Notes under the pieces: generated by a model
What the model was told of the DNA's origin: nothing
The model's database searches: none
Seen by the model: only the letters and a program-made list of their open reading frames with translations
Made by a program: the position numbers and the translations under genes
Shown: piece after piece, positions 115 to 7,942 of the stretch
Layout of the letters: the number at the start of each line of letters is the position of its first letter
Numbering within the stretch: the stretch's first letter is position 1
Virus record (IMG/VR): IMGVR_UViG_2529292910_000006
Source of the DNA: a virus
Taxonomy: Duplodnaviria > Heunggongvirae > Uroviricota > Caudoviricetes
DNA: 7,942 nucleotides
Reading direction: 5' to 3' (one strand)

Positions 115-489
115 ATGCTCATAGATTTGGTTTTACCTTACCCGCCGACGGTGAACACTTACTGGCGACGCCGTGGCAGCACATATTTTATCTCGGAGGA
201 GGGAAAGCGTTATCGCCGGGCTGTGGCGCTTATTGTTCGCCAGCAGCGGCTGAAATTAAGCCTGTCCGGAAGGCTGGCGATAAAGGTGATTGCAGAGCCA
301 CCGGATAAGCGTCGTCGCGACCTGGACAATATCCTGAAAGCACCGCTGGATGCGCTGACGCACGCGGGGTTGTTAATGGACGATGAGCAGTTTGATGAAA
401 TCAATATTGTACGTGGAAAGCCAGTATCTGGTGGACGTCTGGGGGTGAAGATTTACCCCATAATGCTTGAAGGGCAGGTCAAAAAATGA
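115..489 (+). CDS. rusA: Holliday junction resolvase RusA (crossover junction endodeoxyribonuclease)
   Basis: 124-aa ORF with AAGAGG ribosome-binding site at 103-108 and ATG at 115. The N-terminal LPYPPTVNTYWRRRG and the acidic catalytic block PDKRRRDLDNILKAPLDALTHAGLLMDDEQF match my recollection of E. coli RusA ([23 protein letters not shown]). Its TGA overlaps the next gene's ATG (ATGA at 486-489). Confidence 0.9.
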   Translation: MLIDLVLPYPPTVNTYWRRRGSTYFISEEGKRYRRAVALIVRQQRLKLSLSGRLAIKVIAEPPDKRRRDLDNILKAPLDALTHAGLLMDDEQFDEINIVRGKPVSGGRLGVKIYPIMLEGQVKK

Positions 490-1306
490 AACTGGAAGAT
501 TTACCGAAATACTACTCCCCAAAATCCCCTGGCCTGACCGATGCATCGGCCTCAACGTCAAAAGATGCGCTGAGTATCACTGATGTGATGGCCGCGCAGG
601 GCATGACACAGAATCGGGCTGAGATGGGGTTTTCTGCGTTCCTTGGGAAAATGGGCATTAGTATGAATGACAGAGAGCGGGCAACAGAATTGCTGACAGA
701 ATATGCACTCAGTCGGTGTGATCGCGTGGCGGCGTTAAGAAAACTCCCGGCAGAAATAAAACCGGCAGTAATGCGTATTATGGCTTCGTATGCGTTTGAA
801 GATTATGCCCGTAGCGCGGCGAGCAAAAAACAGTGCCCCTGCTGTCACGGAAAAAATTTATTGAAAGCGAGGTTTTTACAAACAAGATCCAGTATCCGGA
901 TGGTAAGCCGCCAGTGTGGGCAAAGTGCACAAAAGGCGTGTATCCGTCTTACTGGGAGGAATGGAAAAAAGTCAGGGAGGTGGTAAAAGTTGCCTGTCCG
1001 GAGTGTGGAGGGAAGGGAGAGGTATCCACTGCCTGTAAAGATTGTCGTGGGCGCGGTGTTGCCATTCATCGTGAAGAGTCGGAAAAACAGGGTGTGCCGG
1101 TTTTCAGAAACTGTCAGCGTTGTGGTGGGCGTGGCTATGAAAGATTACCTTCAACGGAGGCATTTAATGCCATATGTAATGTAACCGATGCCATATCTCT
1201 TGATACATGGAAAAAAACAGTTAAACGTTTTTACGATACGCTGGTGGTGCAGTTTGATATTGAAGAAGCATGGGCAGAACAACAACTGAAAAAGGTGACC
1301 AGATAG
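486..1306 (+). pseudogene. Lambdoid late antiterminator Q-like protein with CxxCxGxG zinc-finger repeats, interrupted by a -1 frameshift in an A6 tract (851-856)
   Basis: Sits directly after rusA and before a late-promoter/terminator pair. The N-terminal part (frame 0, MKLEDLPKYYSPKSP…CPCCHGK) turns into R/S/Q-rich translation after about 855, while frame 2 picks up from about 857 (KFIESEVF…CPECGGKG…CKDCRGRG…CQRCGGRG) and runs to TAG at 1304-1306. One extra A in the run at 851-856 would give a single ORF of about 272 aa. Alternative reading: two overlapping genes, 486-986 and 833-1306. Confidence 0.6.
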
Positions 1307-1339: not shown

Positions 1340-1386
1340 TGCCCTAACGATGGGCGTTTTATGCCTGACGTTAGAAGATTTTTACA

Positions 1387-1409
1387 CCCGTCGCCAGGCG
1401 GGTTTTTTT
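1387..1409 (+). terminator. Rho-independent terminator (tR'-like) downstream of the late promoter
   Basis: Stem CCCGTC (1387-1392), loop GCCA, stem GGCGGG (1397-1402) with one G-U pair, followed by T7 (1403-1409). Confidence 0.6.
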
Positions 1410-1531
1410 ATGACTGAAATCACGCCAGTACAGTAAACGCGCTGGTGGCGGTGAATACCGGTCTTTCAGCTTGCTGGCTTTTTTGACAAGAGTTATTGGT
1501 GTGTCACGTTAACCGGAAAAGGGAAAAAGAC

Positions 1532-1729
1532 ATGCTGAAACAGCAGGATATGACCGAAACCGCCAGAGTGGTGTTTAATGAATTAAGTGCCACCGCACCG
1601 GCGACAGTCGGGGAGATTGCACAGAATACTTACCTCTCACGCGAACGCTGCCAGTTAATACTGACCCAGCTTGTTATGGCGGGTCTGGCAGACTATCAGT
1701 GCGGTTGTTACAGACGCCTTCAGTCCTGA
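1532..1729 (+). CDS. Small hypothetical protein (65 aa), accessory gene of unknown function
   Basis: ATG at 1532 preceded by AAGGG at 1519-1523; the ORF track also allows a GTG start at 1496. The protein (MLKQQDMTETARVVFNELSATAPATVGEIAQNTYLSRERCQLILTQLVMAGLADYQCGCYRRLQS) has a short helix-turn-helix-like central segment. Its stop codon is embedded in an intrinsic terminator. Confidence 0.5.
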   Translation: MLKQQDMTETARVVFNELSATAPATVGEIAQNTYLSRERCQLILTQLVMAGLADYQCGCYRRLQS

Positions 1730-1741
1730 AGGCTTTTTATT
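1716..1741 (+). terminator. Rho-independent terminator at the end of the small ORF
   Basis: Perfect 7-bp stem GCCTTCA (1716-1722) / TGAAGGC (1727-1733) with loop GTCC, followed by TTTTTATTT. Confidence 0.65.
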
Positions 1742-1762
1742 TGTGGTGAATGGGCGGCTGGT

Positions 1763-1770
1763 GGGGGGGG
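1763..1770. repeat. G8 homopolymer tract in the intergenic region upstream of the AraC-family gene
   Basis: GGGGGGGG at 1763-1770, about 30 bp upstream of the candidate -35 element. Confidence 0.9.
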
Positions 1771-1798
1771 CGACACCTGTCAGTCCTTTGCTTATGTG

Positions 1799-1829
1799 TT
1801 GATGATAATTTACCTTTTGGGGCTATAAT
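1799..1829 (+). promoter_or_regulatory. Candidate sigma70 promoter for the AraC-family gene
   Basis: TTGATG at 1799-1804 and a perfect TATAAT at 1824-1829, in an AT-rich stretch about 35 bp upstream of ATG 1865. The 19-bp spacer is longer than optimal. Confidence 0.3.
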
Positions 1830-1864: not shown

Positions 1865-2578
1865 ATGGCTGTTGTCTGTTCAGTTATCATGGTTTGCTCC
1901 CCAATTAATATTTTTCTTGAAAAGGATACGTTGTCACTTAAGCCAGGCTCAGTCGTTCTGGCCACCAAATGCATCAGGGAGCTTTTCCTTATGCATTATG
2001 ACAAAGTTAAAATTGTCGATATAAGCGAATCCGTCGTAAGTCAATATCTGGAAAGTCAGCATAAGCTGACGAGGACTCGTCTGACTGACATTCCGCTTTA
2101 CCTGTTGCTGGAACCCAACAATCCTGCGTTGGCTGCGGCTTTAATTACCAGCCAGGGATTTTCCGGAGAGGCCACGGATATGTTTCTTATGATGGCCTGC
2201 CTGTCTCTGTTTGAAACAGATGAACGGATGTCATTGTTTTTAAGTGGATGTTTATCCAGCATAAGTGTCAAAGTCAGGGCGATAATTCAGACAGATATAT
2301 CAGCAAGCTGGACGCTTGGTGCGATTGCTCTACAGTTGCATATGAGTGAGAGTTTGTTAAAGACAAAACTGAAAAATGAAGGGGGCATGTTCAGTCGCTT
2401 GTTGCTGGAAGAGCGGATGCGTGTTGCTGTAAATATGTTATGTTCCCGGTATGGATATGGACAGGCTGTAGCAGAAAAATGCGGTTATTCAAGCAGGTCC
2501 TACTTTATTTCTGTATTTCACCGCTATTATGGCTTCCCGCCAGACAGATATGTATCCAGGCAAGGGCTTGATTATTGA
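1865..2578 (+). CDS. AraC/XylS-family transcriptional regulator of the AppY/GadX-like group (prophage-borne, PatE/Psr-like)
   Basis: 237-aa ORF. The C-terminal AraC-type HTH (WTLGAIALQLHMSESLLKTKLKNEGGMFSRLLLEERMRVAVNMLCSRYGYGQAVAEKCGYSSRSYFISVFHRYYGFPPDRYVS) closely parallels the GadX C-terminus as I recall it (WTLARIASELLMSPSLLKKKLREEETSYSQLL…CGYHSVSYFIYVFRNYYGMTPTEY). The N-terminus MAVVCSVIMVCS…IRELF…KVKIVDISE resembles AppY (MDYVCSVVFICQ…IRREL…KLRIVDIDK). No recognisable Shine-Dalgarno sequence. Confidence 0.8.
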   Translation: MAVVCSVIMVCSPINIFLEKDTLSLKPGSVVLATKCIRELFLMHYDKVKIVDISESVVSQYLESQHKLTRTRLTDIPLYLLLEPNNPALAAALITSQGFSGEATDMFLMMACLSLFETDERMSLFLSGCLSSISVKVRAIIQTDISASWTLGAIALQLHMSESLLKTKLKNEGGMFSRLLLEERMRVAVNMLCSRYGYGQAVAEKCGYSSRSYFISVFHRYYGFPPDRYVSRQGLDY

Positions 2579-2856: not shown

Positions 2857-3143
2857 CACCACACTTATCTGCCCTGACTCTCTTTTGCGGGCTTTTTATT
2901 ACAGGAAAGACACCGGACAGTGAAATGTTAAATGCCTCACAATTCAGGCAGTTGACTGTTGCCTGACATGCTGAGCGTTTGTTAAAAAAATCCTGCATGA
3001 TGAATCCCCCTGAGCGGCGGGGCATAATGACAGATGTTTGGTTGCGTATTGTATAGGCAAGTTGCGGATTCTGTCTGGTCATTGCAGAATTCACCGGGAG
3101 GCACCCGGCATCATGCTGTATACAGAGATTAGGCATATATCCA

Positions 3144-3168
3144 GGCTCCTCATCGCAGGAGCCTTTTT
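3144..3168 (+). terminator. Rho-independent terminator (+ strand)
   Basis: Stem GGCTCCT (3144-3150) / AGGAGCC (3157-3163) with loop CATCGC, followed by TTTTT. Confidence 0.55.
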
Positions 3169-3174
3169 ACATGC

Positions 3175-3199
3175 AAAAAAAGCCCGAGTGGGTTCGGGC
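3175..3199 (-). terminator. Rho-independent terminator (- strand), forming a back-to-back pair with the + strand terminator
   Basis: On the minus strand: GCCCGA, loop ACCCAC, TCGGGC, followed by T7 (seen as A7 at 3175-3181 then GCCCGAGTGGGTTCGGGC on the + strand). Confidence 0.45.
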
Positions 3200-3259
3200 A
3201 ACAGCATGAGATACTTGCATTGTCATTTTTATCGTGTGGATTTTAACCAGGGTTTATAA

Positions 3260-3377: not shown

Positions 3378-5312
3378 ATGGCATTTAAACACTATGACGT
3401 GGTCAGGGCGGCGTCGCCGTCAGACCTTGCTGAACGACTGACTCAAAAACTGAGGGAGGGGTGGCAGCCATTTGGCAGTCCTGTCGCCATCACGCCTTAT
3501 ACCCTGATGCAGGCCATTGCGGCGGAAGGTGATGTCACCACACCTGTGGTGGTGAGGCCGTCGGATGGAGAAGGCACAGTTATCAGCACCACCAGCGAAC
3601 CGGAATATTACTATGTTGTCGTCCTTGCCGGTCAGTCCAATGGTATGGCTTTTGGCGAAGGGCTGCCGTTACCTGAAACCTATGACCGCCCTGAGCCGCG
3701 CATTATGCAGCTGGCGCGCCGTAGTACGGTGACGCCGGGGGGAGCTGCATGTGCGTACAATGATGTTATTCCAGCTGACCACTGTCTGCATGACGTCATT
3801 GATATGAGTGGATTCAACCACCCACGGGCCGACCTGACAAAGGGGCAGTATGGTTGTGTGGGGCAGGGGCTGCATATTGCCAAAAAGCTTCTGCCGTTCA
3901 TTCCGGTAAATGCAGGTATTCTCCTGGTTCCGTGCTGTCGTGGTGGCTCAGCATTCACCTCCGGAGATGATGGCGCATTTACTGAGTCTACCGGTGCTTC
4001 CGCCAGCTCAGCCCGCTGGGGAGTGGGTAAACCGTTGTATCAGGATTTTCTCTTCCGTACAAAAGCGGCGCTGTCGAAGAACCCGAAAAACAGGCTTCTG
4101 GCCGTGGTATGGATGCAGGGGGAAAATGATCTTGCGGACGGCAGTCAGCAGCACAGCGGCCTGTTTACCGCTATGGTGCAGCAGTTCAGGGCTGATATGG
4201 CAGCATATTCTGCACAGTGCGTTGGCGGAAGTGCTGGCTCGGTGCCGTGGATTTGCGGTGACACCACGTATTACTGGAAGAATCTTAACGCCGCTAAATA
4301 TGAGGCGGTATATGGCGGTTACAAGGGCAGGGAAGCACAGAATATTTTCTTTGTTCCTTTTATGACGGACAGCAGTGGTGCAAACACACCCACCAACAAT
4401 CCGTCAGAAGACCCGGATATTCCGGCATCAGGATATTACGGTGCAGCCTCCCGGACGTCGGAAAACTGGACGTCAGCAGACCGTGCGAGCCATTTCAGCT
4501 CATGGGCACGCAGGGGGATTATTTCTGACCGTCTGGCCTCAGCGATTCTTCTCCATGCAGGACGATCGGCTGAACTGGTGGGGGGACAGGTTGTGACGCC
4601 GCCGGATGAGAAGCCGTCACCGGACATACCATCAACACCGTCAACGGACGGGAAATCAGTGACAACGCTGCTTTCTTACCGTGCAGCAGAGTCAGATGGT
4701 TTACTGACTCCGCAGGGATGGGGTGCTGAAGGAGGGAGTGCAGCGGTAGTTGATGATGCAGGTGCTGCGGGAGGTAAGGCGCTGAGGCTGACCAAACAGG
4801 CAGGAAGGTCTTCGTGGTTTATGCAGCATGATGCCGGTAATGGCGCAGACCTTCTGGAGAAAGGCGGGCTTATCAGCTGTCGTTTTAAAGTTGATGGTGT
4901 GCTGTCTGCTAACCGTTATGCACTGGCGCTGTACTGGCCGGTTTCTTCATTGCCTCAGGGTGTCACACTGGAAGGTAATGCCGGTAACAATCTGCTGGCG
5001 TCGTTTTACGTACAGAGCGATGCCACAGACCTCAACGTGATGTACCACAAGGGTAACGCTGACCAGAACACGAAGCTGGGGTCATTCGGCGCATTTGACA
5101 ACGAATGGCATACGCTGGGCTTCCGTTTTGCCGGTAATAACAGCATTCAGGTGACGCCGGTGATTGATGGTCAGGATGGTGCACCGTTCATGCTGTCGCA
5201 GTCTCCGGTAGGTTCTTTTGCGGCAGACAAATTACGTGTAACGGATATCACAAAAGCGGCGACGTATACGGTGCTGATTGAAAGTATAACAGTGGAAGTG
5301 AATAACGCGTAA
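3378..5312 (+). CDS. nanS-p: Prophage sialate O-acetylesterase NanS-p (N-terminal DUF1737-like region plus SGNH/SASA esterase domain), 644 aa
   Basis: Strong ribosome-binding site GGAGG at 3368-3372 with ATG at 3378; the ORF track's longer 3234 start is an in-frame upstream extension. GQSNG esterase motif in VVVLAGQSNGMAFGEG (about 3630-3644). Size and position (after the tRNA triplet, before the holin) match the esterase gene found downstream of stx in Stx phages. Confidence 0.85.
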   Translation: MAFKHYDVVRAASPSDLAERLTQKLREGWQPFGSPVAITPYTLMQAIAAEGDVTTPVVVRPSDGEGTVISTTSEPEYYYVVVLAGQSNGMAFGEGLPLPETYDRPEPRIMQLARRSTVTPGGAACAYNDVIPADHCLHDVIDMSGFNHPRADLTKGQYGCVGQGLHIAKKLLPFIPVNAGILLVPCCRGGSAFTSGDDGAFTESTGASASSARWGVGKPLYQDFLFRTKAALSKNPKNRLLAVVWMQGENDLADGSQQHSGLFTAMVQQFRADMAAYSAQCVGGSAGSVPWICGDTTYYWKNLNAAKYEAVYGGYKGREAQNIFFVPFMTDSSGANTPTNNPSEDPDIPASGYYGAASRTSENWTSADRASHFSSWARRGIISDRLASAILLHAGRSAELVGGQVVTPPDEKPSPDIPSTPSTDGKSVTTLLSYRAAESDGLLTPQGWGAEGGSAAVVDDAGAAGGKALRLTKQAGRSSWFMQHDAGNGADLLEKGGLISCRFKVDGVLSANRYALALYWPVSSLPQGVTLEGNAGNNLLASFYVQSDATDLNVMYHKGNADQNTKLGSFGAFDNEWHTLGFRFAGNNSIQVTPVIDGQDGAPFMLSQSPVGSFAADKLRVTDITKAATYTVLIESITVEVNNA

Positions 5313-6839: not shown

Positions 6840-6980
6840 ATGAACACCAAAATCAAATACGGCCTGTCGGCTGCCGTTCTGGCGCTGATTGCCGCTGGTG
6901 CGCCTGCGCCTGACATTCTCGACCAGTTTCTGGATGAAAAGGAAGGTAACCACACCACGGCATACCGTGATGGCGCGGGT
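6840..6980 (+). pseudogene. R: SAR endolysin (lysozyme R) 5' fragment, truncated after about 47 codons
   Basis: MNTKIKYGLSAAVLALIAAGAPAPDILDQFLDEKEGNHTTAYRDGAG matches the N-terminal signal-anchor-release region of Stx-phage/phage-21-type endolysins as recalled (…YGLSAAVLALIAAGA…DQFLDEKEGNHTTAYRDGAG). After about 6980 the frame becomes unrelated and stops at 7014-7016. Confidence 0.75.
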
Positions 6981-6985
6981 ACACC

Positions 6986-7942
6986 ATGCAGGTTGAGCCG
7001 GGGCGTTATCGTGTGACCCTGTGCGTGGAAGGCCGTCAGCCGGCATGCGCTGGCGAGATTGACGTCATGGCAGACGACGAGCCGGGCACACTGAATGCGT
7101 TTTTGCTGCGTGAGCAGGACAGCACTTATTACCCTGAGTCGCTGAAAAAACTGGAAGACGCGGCGGATGCGGCTGTCAGCAGGGCAGAGGAAGCGGCGAG
7201 GAAAGCGGAAACGGCGGTTGGGCCACAGGGACCGAAAGGCGACACCGGAGCAACGGGGCCGCAGGGACAGAAGGGGGACAAGGGGGATACAGGCCCACAG
7301 GGGCCAAAGGGGGATAAAGGAGACAAGGGCGATAAGGGGGATAAGGGAAAAGAGATTATTGCAGTACGAAATGCAGCCTGCAACGAATACGGCGGGATAA
7401 ACTGTGAGGTGCAGTTTGAAGATGCGGTCAATGAAAAAGGAGAGCAGGTATGGCTGCCGTATACCGCAACGGAAACGGATAATACAGAACACGGAAAAGC
7501 CTTGTGGTCGGGGCTGACAGCAGGAACATACGGAAGTGTGAGTGCCTTTGTTGCCACGGAAGCAATACTGGAAGCGGCAAAGGCGGCGAAAAGGGAAGAG
7601 ATTAATATCTGGCGTGATGTGCAGGAGAATATGGAATACGTGATGGAATTCAACGGAAGGAACTGGGATTACGGCAAGAAGACGTTGTCCAGGATAAGCA
7701 CGACACGACTGATGGCAGAGAACAACCGTCTTCCGGAAGGGTTTGCCTGGACGGACGGGGATAATAATGTGGTGCCGGTAACGGCGGCGGAGATAATTGC
7801 GCTGGCAGATGCGACAGAGCAGGCGATGTTTGCGAAAGGTGTGGAGATTAATACACGTCAGCTTCAGATGAAAGCAGAGGTTGAGGCGCTGACAGAGCTG
7901 AAGGCGATCCGCAGTTATGTTGTCGGATGGCCTGCAAGCTAG
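6986..7942 (+). CDS. stf: Side tail fibre protein, 5'-truncated remnant (318 aa from the first ATG) with collagen-like Gly-X-Y repeats
   Basis: EPGRYRVTLCVEGRQPACAGEIDVMADDEPGTLNAFL aligns with lambda Stf residues around 55-95 as recalled (EYGQYSVILQVDGFPPSHAGTITVYEDSQPGTLNDFL), so the homology starts mid-protein. Fourteen Gly-X-Y triplets follow. The frame is open back to 6971 and runs to TAG at 7940-7942, with no ribosome-binding site of its own. Confidence 0.7.
   Translation: MQVEPGRYRVTLCVEGRQPACAGEIDVMADDEPGTLNAFLLREQDSTYYPESLKKLEDAADAAVSRAEEAARKAETAVGPQGPKGDTGATGPQGQKGDKGDTGPQGPKGDKGDKGDKGDKGKEIIAVRNAACNEYGGINCEVQFEDAVNEKGEQVWLPYTATETDNTEHGKALWSGLTAGTYGSVSAFVATEAILEAAKAAKREEINIWRDVQENMEYVMEFNGRNWDYGKKTLSRISTTRLMAENNRLPEGFAWTDGDNNVVPVTAAEIIALADATEQAMFAKGVEINTRQLQMKAEVEALTELKAIRSYVVGWPAS
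7220..7354 (+). repeat. Collagen-like triplet repeat (Gly-X-Y, 14-15 units, including four GDK in tandem) inside the tail fibre gene
   Basis: GPQGPKGDTGATGPQGQKGDKGDTGPQGPKGDKGDKGDKGDKGKE, with a 9-bp periodicity of GGnGAnAAG-type units visible in the DNA. Confidence 0.9.

Follow-up and report, generated by a model that had tools for sequence, protein, structure and literature searches.

PapI and PefI are stand-alone winged-helix proteins of ~70 amino acids that steer Lrp at fimbrial switches controlled by Dam methylation. The C proteins of restriction-modification systems are regulators of a different build, being Xre-type helix-turn-helix proteins with palindromic C-boxes upstream. Among prophage-encoded enzymes, M.EcoGII is a 349-residue, beta-class adenine methyltransferase that is sequence-non-specific (Murray et al., PMC5778455). 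[quoted passage not shown] Prophages also encode AraC-type regulators, including PsrA, PsrB and PatE, which work when supplied alone in trans (reviewed in PMC10877973). The single paper found to mention the small gene considered here does so in passing, listing it with a methylase between the antiterminator gene and stx2e (PMC9729726).

The gene lies in a stretch of 7,942 nucleotides (IMG/VR record IMGVR_UViG_2529292910_000006), referred to here as the window, which corresponds to the Q-to-lysis segment in an E. coli lambdoid prophage. It begins with RusA (115..489) and the gene for the antiterminator Q, which is split by a frameshift (486..986 and 833..1306). An intrinsic terminator follows on the + strand (1386..1411, hairpin 1386-1403). 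It was located by a terminator scan and is presumed from its position to be the late terminator tR'. Equivalents of this post-Q hairpin and T-run occur in nearly all related loci, with stem sequences that differ. Next comes the gene of interest, which encodes a minimal winged-helix protein of 65 residues (PHROG 331; 1532..1729, + strand). It is followed by the gene for an AraC-family regulator that resembles YdeO and GadX (PHROG 1450; 1865..2578, + strand), three tRNA genes and the sRNAs STnc100 and AgvB. The distal part of the window holds a sialate-esterase-like gene, DUF1378, DUF826 and a P21-type holin. The closest complete genome is that of a bovine E. coli, with 98.8% identity and identical gene order, in which the ORF is annotated as "hypothetical protein".

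The prophage represented by the window is defective, with Q frameshifted and the morphogenesis genes deleted. The deletion is evident from the fusion of the lysis region to a tail-fibre gene. The frameshift in Q sits at an A-run, and at such a homopolymer position a sequencing error is possible. Taken together, the frameshift and the fusion mean that the copy of the 65-residue ORF in the window may be silent.

A sequence-only reading of this DNA had described a 65-residue ORF with a helix-turn-helix-like core, which ended inside a perfect 7-bp hairpin terminator, lay between the late terminator and the AraC-family gene and belonged to no family that was recognised. This description has stood up well. 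The ORF is intact and runs on the + strand from an ATG at 1532 through 65 codons to a TGA at 1727-1729. The program-made list of ORFs has it as 1496..1729, starting from an upstream TTG. Met1 is invariant in the homologues and the frame is closed 2-3 codons 5' of the ATG in several loci, and therefore the start is placed at ATG 1532. Read from the sequence, a putative ribosome-binding site, AAAGGGA, with a GGGA that resembles a Shine-Dalgarno element, lies 7 nt before this ATG (1518..1524, + strand). AAGG or AGGG is kept at the same spacing in the homologues.

The length of the ORF is not significant by itself, because the window contains 95 ORFs of at least 30 amino acids. What takes it beyond chance is conservation, both of amino acids (pN/pS by frame) and of the position of the hairpin, which is kept with 14 different stems. 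The loci compared were 20 fetched from different species, together with annotated phage and E. coli loci. Among 23 loci, the in-frame pN/pS is 0.29, against values of 1.28 and 1.62 for the two alternative frames. The median dN/dS is 0.13, with synonymous sites near saturation (pS 0.67), and the variable states at codon positions 1, 2 and 3 number 71, 58 and 141. In-frame stops are absent from 22 of 23 relatives, the exception being a premature stop in Mangrovibacter yixingensis. Met1 and 25 other columns are invariant among 22 proteins from several genera. The earlier reading had pointed to frame-breaking variants in related prophages as the sign of a spurious ORF; what is seen is purifying selection on the frame across genera. 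Judged by this conservation, 1532..1729 is a genuine protein-coding gene. The product in the window carries no disabling change and is one residue apart from the copies in Stx2a phages (98.5% identity).

The helix-turn-helix core appears to be of the winged-helix type, according to Pfam matches and an AlphaFold2 model. In Pfam, residues 6-56 match TrmB, HTH_24, DprA_WH and MarR_2 with scores just below the thresholds, and one relative (L019) exceeds the DprA_WH threshold. The model (pLDDT 74) has helices at residues 4-18, 26-32 and 37-49, which form the three-helix bundle with a helix-turn-helix that characterises the winged-helix superfamily. Residues 53-63 are also modelled as a helix, with pLDDT of 46-58, and the value is <50 for residues 60-65 (the underlying alignment is shallow, with 22 close sequences). 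The C-terminal beta-hairpin, or "wing", has no confident model. The third helix is hydrophobic and the predicted protein has a net charge of about zero (6 basic and 6 acidic residues by count). Searches with the single sequence or a profile gave no relatives among solved structures. Foldseek against viral structure predictions gave nothing below E 0.4, with all matches to generic winged-helix proteins, and the PADLOC defence-system models gave one weak match (E 0.0014) to part of a long protein.

Is the protein a member of the TrmB family? Homologues in RefSeq are mostly labelled "TrmB family transcriptional regulator" or "hypothetical protein". Against PF01978 the window protein scores 18.0 bits and its relatives 17-19, compared with a gathering cut-off of 25.6. 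The C-terminal effector (sugar-binding) domain of TrmB is absent, and the 65 residues make up a single domain. TrmB family membership was rejected on both the score and the lack of an effector domain. The RefSeq name reflects the domain alone.

The family to which the protein does belong is a phage protein family with no annotated function, PHROG 331 (E 1.2e-36, 125.7 bits; residues 1-64 on profile positions 35-98 of 111). Among 5.8 billion proteins searched there were 298 close homologues, from hosts that include Escherichia, Shigella, Salmonella, Klebsiella, Citrobacter, Buttiauxella and Scandinavium, among others. The exact sequence of the window protein was already public. In a profile search of 1.84 billion cluster representatives there were only 89 matches, all within the family, and no bridge to any characterised family. 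None of its members has been characterised. From these searches the family is narrow and specific to Enterobacterales prophages, and its members are predicted stand-alone winged-helix domains of 63-67 residues. Within this range the gene is very common, being carried by about 2,140 of 5,426 complete E. coli genomes (~39%), often in several copies, which makes roughly 4,000 E. coli copies in total.

What lies 3' of the ORF at these loci? The sequence-only reading proposed that the small protein might be a partner or modulator of the adjacent AraC-family regulator, or else an independent small DNA-binding protein, and suggested a check of whether the two genes co-occur. They do not do so consistently. 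The usual neighbour is an N6/N4 DNA methyltransferase of ~350 residues, which is found 3' of the ORF in 21 of 23 related loci. Of the 57 phage records that encode the small protein, 55 have the methylase immediately 3' of the ORF, and these include SfV, mEp460, the cdtI phage, Stx2a/c/d/e phages and phages of Klebsiella, Citrobacter, Hafnia, Morganella and Providencia. All of the other-species loci, as well as phiP27, 1720a-02 and Stx2_EH1910, have an N6_N4_Mtase protein of 347-355 residues ~150 nt 3'. In E. coli the ORF is accompanied by the methylase in 1,873 genomes and by the AraC gene in at least 697, out of the about 2,140 that carry it; the AraC gene is present in none of 20 loci from other species. 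Other arrangements have the ORF followed by iraM and an esterase gene, or by an esterase gene. Thus the partner half of the proposal finds no support, and the ORF product is best described by the other half, as an independent small DNA-binding protein.

The association with the methylase is not universal. The methylase follows Q without the ORF in phages Eeyore, LLS and OS31, and the ORF is found without the methylase in hundreds of E. coli genomes. By these counts, the linkage is strong but not obligatory in either direction.

One clue to the identity of this methylase is its layout. It matches PF01555 (E 9e-44), and an N-terminal DPPY and a C-terminal FxGxG motif are arranged as in the beta class. 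Another clue comes from phage 1720a-02, which encodes an enzyme very similar to M.EcoGII (PMC5778455). The sole methylase of fitting size and class in this phage is encoded directly 3' of the small ORF, and therefore the usual neighbour is taken to be of the M.EcoGII/M.EcoGI family. On the basis of the published statement, the length and the class, it is probably of the M.EcoGII type. M.EcoGIX had also been considered and was dropped, being plasmid-borne according to the literature; the prophage enzymes are M.EcoGII and M.EcoGI.

In the window, the G+C content falls from 0.54 to 0.37 at the junction beyond which the AraC gene lies. A sigma-70-like promoter, ATGATA-16-TATAAT, is located at 1802..1829 on the + strand (10 of 12 matches, a consensus match only). 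The promoter-like site and the drop in G+C make the AraC gene look like a separately acquired cassette. Compared with the related loci, the AraC cassette, with its own promoter-like site, occupies the methylase slot, where it has replaced the methylase. Among eight sampled AraC-linked copies of the ORF, three are disrupted by loss of the start or by frameshifts, with AraC intact. This may reflect relaxed selection after loss of the methylase. The sample is small, and some of the indels in the disrupted copies may be assembly errors.

The end of the ORF coincides with a hairpin, GCCTTCA-GTCC-TGAAGGC, followed by a T-run (1716..1743, hairpin 1716-1733, + strand). It has 7 pairs (4 of them G-C) and a loop of 4, and is followed by TTTTTATTTG, with 7 T in the next 8 bases. 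The 3' arm opens with the TGA stop codon. This is the perfect 7-bp terminator of the earlier reading, with the stop codon inside it. Its minimum free energy is -10.5 kcal/mol (z -3.4), and the G+C-rich stem-loop followed by a U-run makes it a candidate intrinsic terminator. Between 1250 and 1950 there are four terminator-like sites, against 0.9 expected from shuffles, including this one and the one at 1386-1403.

A hairpin in this position is found in at least 21 of 24 loci, with 14 distinct stems, and the stop codon either falls within the loop or opens the 3' arm. Examples of the stems are GCCTTCA/TGAAGGC, GCCTCCA/TGGGGGC, GCTGCCA/TGGCAGT, CCGCCAG/CTGGTGG and CTCCGC/GCGGAG. Hairpins were analysed sequence by sequence, and pair counting on the MAFFT alignment was dropped since the alignment shifts the arms. 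The stem comparison indicates that the hairpin is maintained through compensatory changes in both arms. Since only the 5' arm is coding, changes in the C-terminal amino acids have their counterparts in the bases beyond the stop. Of all copies, those of the E. coli type alone have a strong T-run (6-7 T of 8); the others end in TTTCTGCTGTG or a similar tail, and the U-run of these relatives is weak (0-6 T of 8). Outside E. coli, therefore, the hairpin may be weaker or may have another role.

Non-coding conservation extends to both sides of the gene. In the leader, the Chi octamer GCTGGTGG is found at 1441..1448 on the + strand and in the same place in loci L001-L003, L005, L009 and L018. It is one of three + strand Chi sites within 520 bp (1240, 1441 and 1757), compared with 0.47 expected in the whole window. 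A conserved non-coding block, defined by the invariant columns of a 22-sequence alignment, follows at 1470..1507 on the + strand and reads CTTGCTGG ... AGAGTTAT(T/C)(G/T)GT(G/A)TGTCAC. As CTTGCTGG...AGAGTTATCTGTATGTCAC, about 25-60 nt 5' of the ORF start, it is near-invariant across genera. An RNA structure for this block was rejected, the RNAalifold consensus being -0.2 kcal/mol with no covarying pairs. A sigma-70 promoter scan of 1411-1531 gave nothing, and by inspection no usable -10 element accompanies the perfect TTGACA at 1483-1488. Rfam gave no match in the leader, the ORF or the downstream spacer (window, L002 and L006) apart from weak chance matches to terminator-like leader models.

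The second conserved region begins about 20 nt past the stop-codon hairpin. Here a near-invariant block, AAATGGGCGGCTGGTGGGTGTT, includes the Chi site at 1757-1764. In methylase-type loci it is the 5' arm of a hairpin of ~18 bp (-28 kcal/mol, z about -5), and the 3' arm shows variation that G-U pairing on the + strand would tolerate. This hairpin and the next ~100 nt are retained in Eeyore and LLS, where the methylase comes after Q and the ORF is missing. By this distribution, the ~18 bp hairpin and the ~100 nt belong to the methylase and not to the 65-residue ORF. The corresponding segment of the window (1750..1803, + strand, with invariant ATGGGCGGCTGGTGG) is a remnant of the methylase leader. 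It keeps the 5' arm alone, next to which is a variable-length poly-G run, and what is left of the 3' arm is degraded (z -0.7). By about 1803, at the start of the AraC promoter, similarity to the methylase-type loci has come to an end. A cassette junction exactly at Chi had been considered; for the AraC type it was rejected, given the residual similarity to about 1803, whereas a junction within 5 nt of Chi holds for the iraM/esterase type (L034 and L035). A conserved small ORF starting from ATGGGCGGC (1750) was rejected too, since its frame stops after 7 codons in most genera. RefSeq annotates a 24-residue "DUF3927" peptide at the equivalent of 1750 in one arrangement.

How might these observations fit together? 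In annotated records Q is followed by a terminator and then by the ORF, and as the first gene after Q and its terminator the ORF is placed at the head of the lambdoid late transcription unit. Our best explanation, to which we give a probability of about one half, is that the small protein is a late-phase DNA-binding accessory or regulator tied ancestrally to the methylase, and that the terminator insulates the variable cargo. RNA polymerase modified by Q would read through the upstream terminator, and the small protein would be made. It would be a DNA-binding accessory or regulator of the late phase, probably as a dimer, and its ancestral function would have been tied to the methyltransferase cassette and not to the AraC regulator. 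In the lysogen, the terminator at the end of the ORF and the one upstream would keep the downstream cargo slot insulated. Q-modified polymerase would override the ORF-end terminator. Perhaps translation contributes as well: a ribosome at the stop codon would cover the 3' arm of the hairpin, and therefore translation of the ORF could reduce termination. Several observations weigh against this account, namely the near-zero net charge of the protein, its poorly modelled wing, the lack of an operator-like dyad and a leader block with neither a promoter nor an RNA-structure signature. Strict dependence on the methylase is further countered by the occurrence of each gene without the other and by the activity of cloned M.EcoGII on its own, although the disrupted AraC-linked copies hint at such a dependence. 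With Q frameshifted, the ORF may not be expressed in the window at all.

What if the protein acts on the methylase itself? It might work by protein contact, as an inhibitor (antitoxin-like), a chaperone or a targeting subunit of the non-specific adenine methyltransferase, either limiting its toxicity or directing it to phage DNA. The copy in the window would then be a leftover without a partner. The near-constant adjacency of the methylase in phages (55 of 57 records) fits this idea, as does the harm done by M.EcoGII when expressed alone (PMC5778455). So do the lack of charge of the small protein, its hydrophobic third helix and the presence of DprA_WH and ScpB among its matches, since some winged-helix domains of this kind are protein-interaction modules. 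Copies of the ORF also decay where the methylase is absent. However, the cloned methylase is fully active without the ORF product, some phages have the methylase without the ORF, and the ORF is intact in five of the eight methylase-less copies sampled. We therefore regard direct contact with the methylase as possible but doubtful.

Another thought is that the gene in the window prophage is a silent passenger, intact by chance in a decaying element and contributing nothing to the host. The state of the prophage is in keeping with this, as Q is frameshifted at the A-run and morphogenesis genes are deleted, as is the finding of no promoter between the upstream terminator and the ORF and of disruptions in sister copies. 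What does not fit is that the ORF is undamaged and a single residue away from functional phage copies (98.5%, Stx2a). Moreover, the frameshift in Q is in a homopolymer and possibly a sequencing error, and read-through of a terminator is never zero. A gene that does nothing in the window is accordingly an unlikely account.

The late-phase reading can be extended into something more ambitious. Some prokaryotic winged-helix domains are known N6-methyladenine sensors. Perhaps the winged-helix protein, the stop-codon hairpin and the Chi-containing 18-bp leader hairpin form an undescribed control module for M.EcoGII-type enzymes. The protein might restrain a toxic enzyme or read hypermethylated DNA, the module might time or direct genome-wide adenine methylation during lytic growth, and the invariant Chi of the leader might be a recombination hotspot for cargo such as stx, tRNAs and AraC regulators. 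As a whole this idea is speculative and decidedly unlikely.

The ORF could also act mainly in cis, as a translated leader in which ribosome traffic governs the stop-codon hairpin and hence transcription of the cargo, with the peptide itself secondary. In at least 21 of 24 loci the hairpin takes in the stop codon, and phages without the ORF keep a hairpin and the methylase leader after the stop codon of a different upstream gene. However, the strong selection on amino acids (pN/pS 0.29) and the predicted winged-helix fold argue for a functional protein, 65 codons is long for a leader peptide, and overlap between a terminator and a stop codon is common and does not imply regulation. A leader of this kind is improbable as the main function, although a role in cis and one for the protein are not mutually exclusive.

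A partnership with the AraC-family regulator is very improbable, for although the genes are adjacent on the same strand in the window and in at least 697 E. coli genomes and both are predicted to encode DNA-binding proteins, members of the ORF family have the methyltransferase or other cargo 3' of them much more frequently, the loci recovered outside E. coli have no AraC gene, the two genes are separated by a terminator, a promoter-like site and the fall in G+C from 0.54 to 0.37, three of eight AraC-linked ORF copies are disrupted beside an intact AraC gene, and the Psr and PatE regulators act alone (PMC10877973).

Why does this small gene matter? Many Shiga-toxin phages carry it just 5' of stx2. 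It stands first on the late transcript, which drives expression of the toxin and lysis genes. The novelty of the gene is low, because it is already catalogued and extremely common; in the window it is an ordinary, catalogued gene in a defective prophage. What is new concerns the context: an apparently ancestral pairing with a methylase, probably of the M.EcoGII type, and the set of unusually conserved non-coding elements that flank the gene. With the context corrected in this way, the gene is best studied together with the methylase and the conserved non-coding elements around it, and not with the AraC regulator. If the product controls or assists the methylase, this would explain how phages can use an enzyme that is toxic to the host, and it could bear on the use of M.EcoGII as a laboratory tool.

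Comparison with known systems sets the protein apart from most of them. Unlike winged-helix factors of the TrmB, MarR and ArsR types, it has 65 residues, no dimerisation helices and no ligand- or sugar-binding domain. It resembles PapI and PefI in fold and size alone, the genomic context here being a phage late operon. The Pfam scan gave no match to the PapI/FaeA-type family, and membership of the PapI/PefI sequence family was not found.

The likeness to the C proteins of restriction-modification systems is one of position, as here too a small protein of DNA-binding type is encoded just 5' of a DNA-modification gene that is harmful if mistimed. This location is seen in the relatives but not in the window, where the AraC-family gene follows. 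In other respects the two differ, because the ORF product is a winged helix, the methylase is an orphan and the gene pair lies inside a late operon controlled by Q. No endonuclease is associated with the methylase in the annotated records. HTH_3/Xre is absent from the Pfam scan, in which all matches are to winged-helix families, and inspection of the leader block at 1470-1507 gave no consistent operator-like dyad or C-box. Since the fold differs, the ORF product is not taken to be a restriction-modification controller protein.

The closest counterparts are within the family itself. PHROG 331 and the RefSeq "TrmB family" proteins of lambdoid prophages (phiP27 L23, SfV orf47 and WP_000917764) are the same family as the window protein, and the position after Q is common to the window and phiP27, SfV, mEp460, the cdtI phage and the Stx2a/c/d/e/k phages. 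They differ only in what follows 3' of the gene: the AraC cassette in the window and the methylase in the others. In its overall layout the window is of the same classic type as other prophages with moron cassettes between Q and the lysis genes (stx, tRNAs and AraC regulators of the Psr/PatE type), sharing with them the succession of Q, terminator, variable cargo with its own promoter, tRNAs, esterase and holin. Unlike the moron cargo genes, however, the 65-residue ORF is part of the conserved segment that lies 5' of the cargo slot.

The small ORF (window 1532..1729) is broken in three of the eight sampled AraC-linked copies, each with an intact AraC gene alongside. One of these (L028) has an ATG to ATA change at the start codon, and the other two (L030 and L031) have indels that cause frameshifts. 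This may reflect relaxed selection when the methylase is absent, or it may be assembly error. The small ORF can also be missing altogether. In phage Eeyore (L025, 1270-1375) a terminator, a short leader-block match (CCAGTTATCT), a hairpin of the stop-codon type and the methylase leader are all present with no small ORF in between. This looks like either a clean deletion of the small ORF or the state that preceded its insertion.

Parts of the non-coding DNA around the small ORF are well conserved. Upstream of its start, the leader block CTTGCTGG...AGAGTTATTGGTGTGTCAC (window 1470-1507) is almost invariant between genera, despite saturated synonymous sites nearby. No promoter, RNA-structure or Rfam signature was found in this block. 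Downstream of the small ORF, the leader of the M.EcoGII-like methylase gene contains a conserved extended hairpin of approximately 18 bp (-28 kcal/mol, z approximately -5). It occupies 4453-4498 in the related locus L002, 4213-4258 in L006 and the equivalent positions elsewhere, with a remnant at 1750-1790 of the window, and it is retained in phages without the small ORF. The 5' arm, which holds a Chi site, is invariant. The 3' arm is variable, and its changes are G-U-compatible, a pattern that suggests an RNA element. It matched no Rfam family. Just inside the methylase gene, over approximately codons 3-9, there is a LexA-box-like sequence, TACTGTAAAAATAAACAGTG (CTGT-N8-ACAG), at approximately 4351-4366 of L006 and at equivalent sites in other non-E. 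coli loci; E. coli-type copies have CTGT-N8-CCAG in its place.

Chi octamers (GCTGGTGG) are over-represented in the window, with four observed versus 0.47 expected. Three of them (1240-1247, 1441-1448 and 1757-1764) are on the plus strand inside the 520 bp surrounding the small ORF, and the fourth (3589-3596) is on the minus strand. Of 24 related loci, drawn from many genera, 22 keep the 1757 Chi in the corresponding place. A poly-G run (1761-1771) is found immediately 3' of this Chi, and the AraC promoter-like site follows approximately 35 nt further downstream. When the window was compared with the equivalent regions of L001 and L033, the length of this run varied from approximately G7 to G10 among otherwise near-identical AraC-type copies.

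Is this prophage intact? In the antiterminator Q gene (486-1306), an A-run at approximately 844-850 is one nucleotide short, with A6 in the window versus A7 in L001 and L002, and this deletion splits the gene into two overlapping ORFs (486..986 and 833..1306). The missing base is either a real mutation that inactivates Q or a sequencing error in the homopolymer. At the other end, there is a 58-codon ORF (6840..7016) without a Pfam match, whose peptide, on inspection, resembles the N-terminal portion of a secreted endolysin. It passes directly into a tail-fibre gene (6986..7942) encoding phage_tail_N, collagen repeats and DUF4376, in which the phage_tail_N match begins at profile position 51. 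Because of this junction, the endolysin C-terminus and every head and tail gene appear to have been deleted, and the prophage is a remnant.

Two Rfam matches fall in the interval that separates the tRNA genes from the esterase gene. STnc100 (2966-3174) is on the plus strand and scores 176.7 bits. The anti-sRNA AgvB (3175-3234) is on the minus strand and, at 56.6 bits, barely reaches its threshold of 56. The tRNA cluster itself (2607-2856), after which the window has no stx genes, comprises a tRNA with a CAT anticodon followed by Arg-TCG and Arg-TCT. ARAGORN calls the first of these Met; RefSeq relatives have it annotated as tRNA-Ile. The cluster is of the ileZ-argN-argO type of Stx-like prophages.
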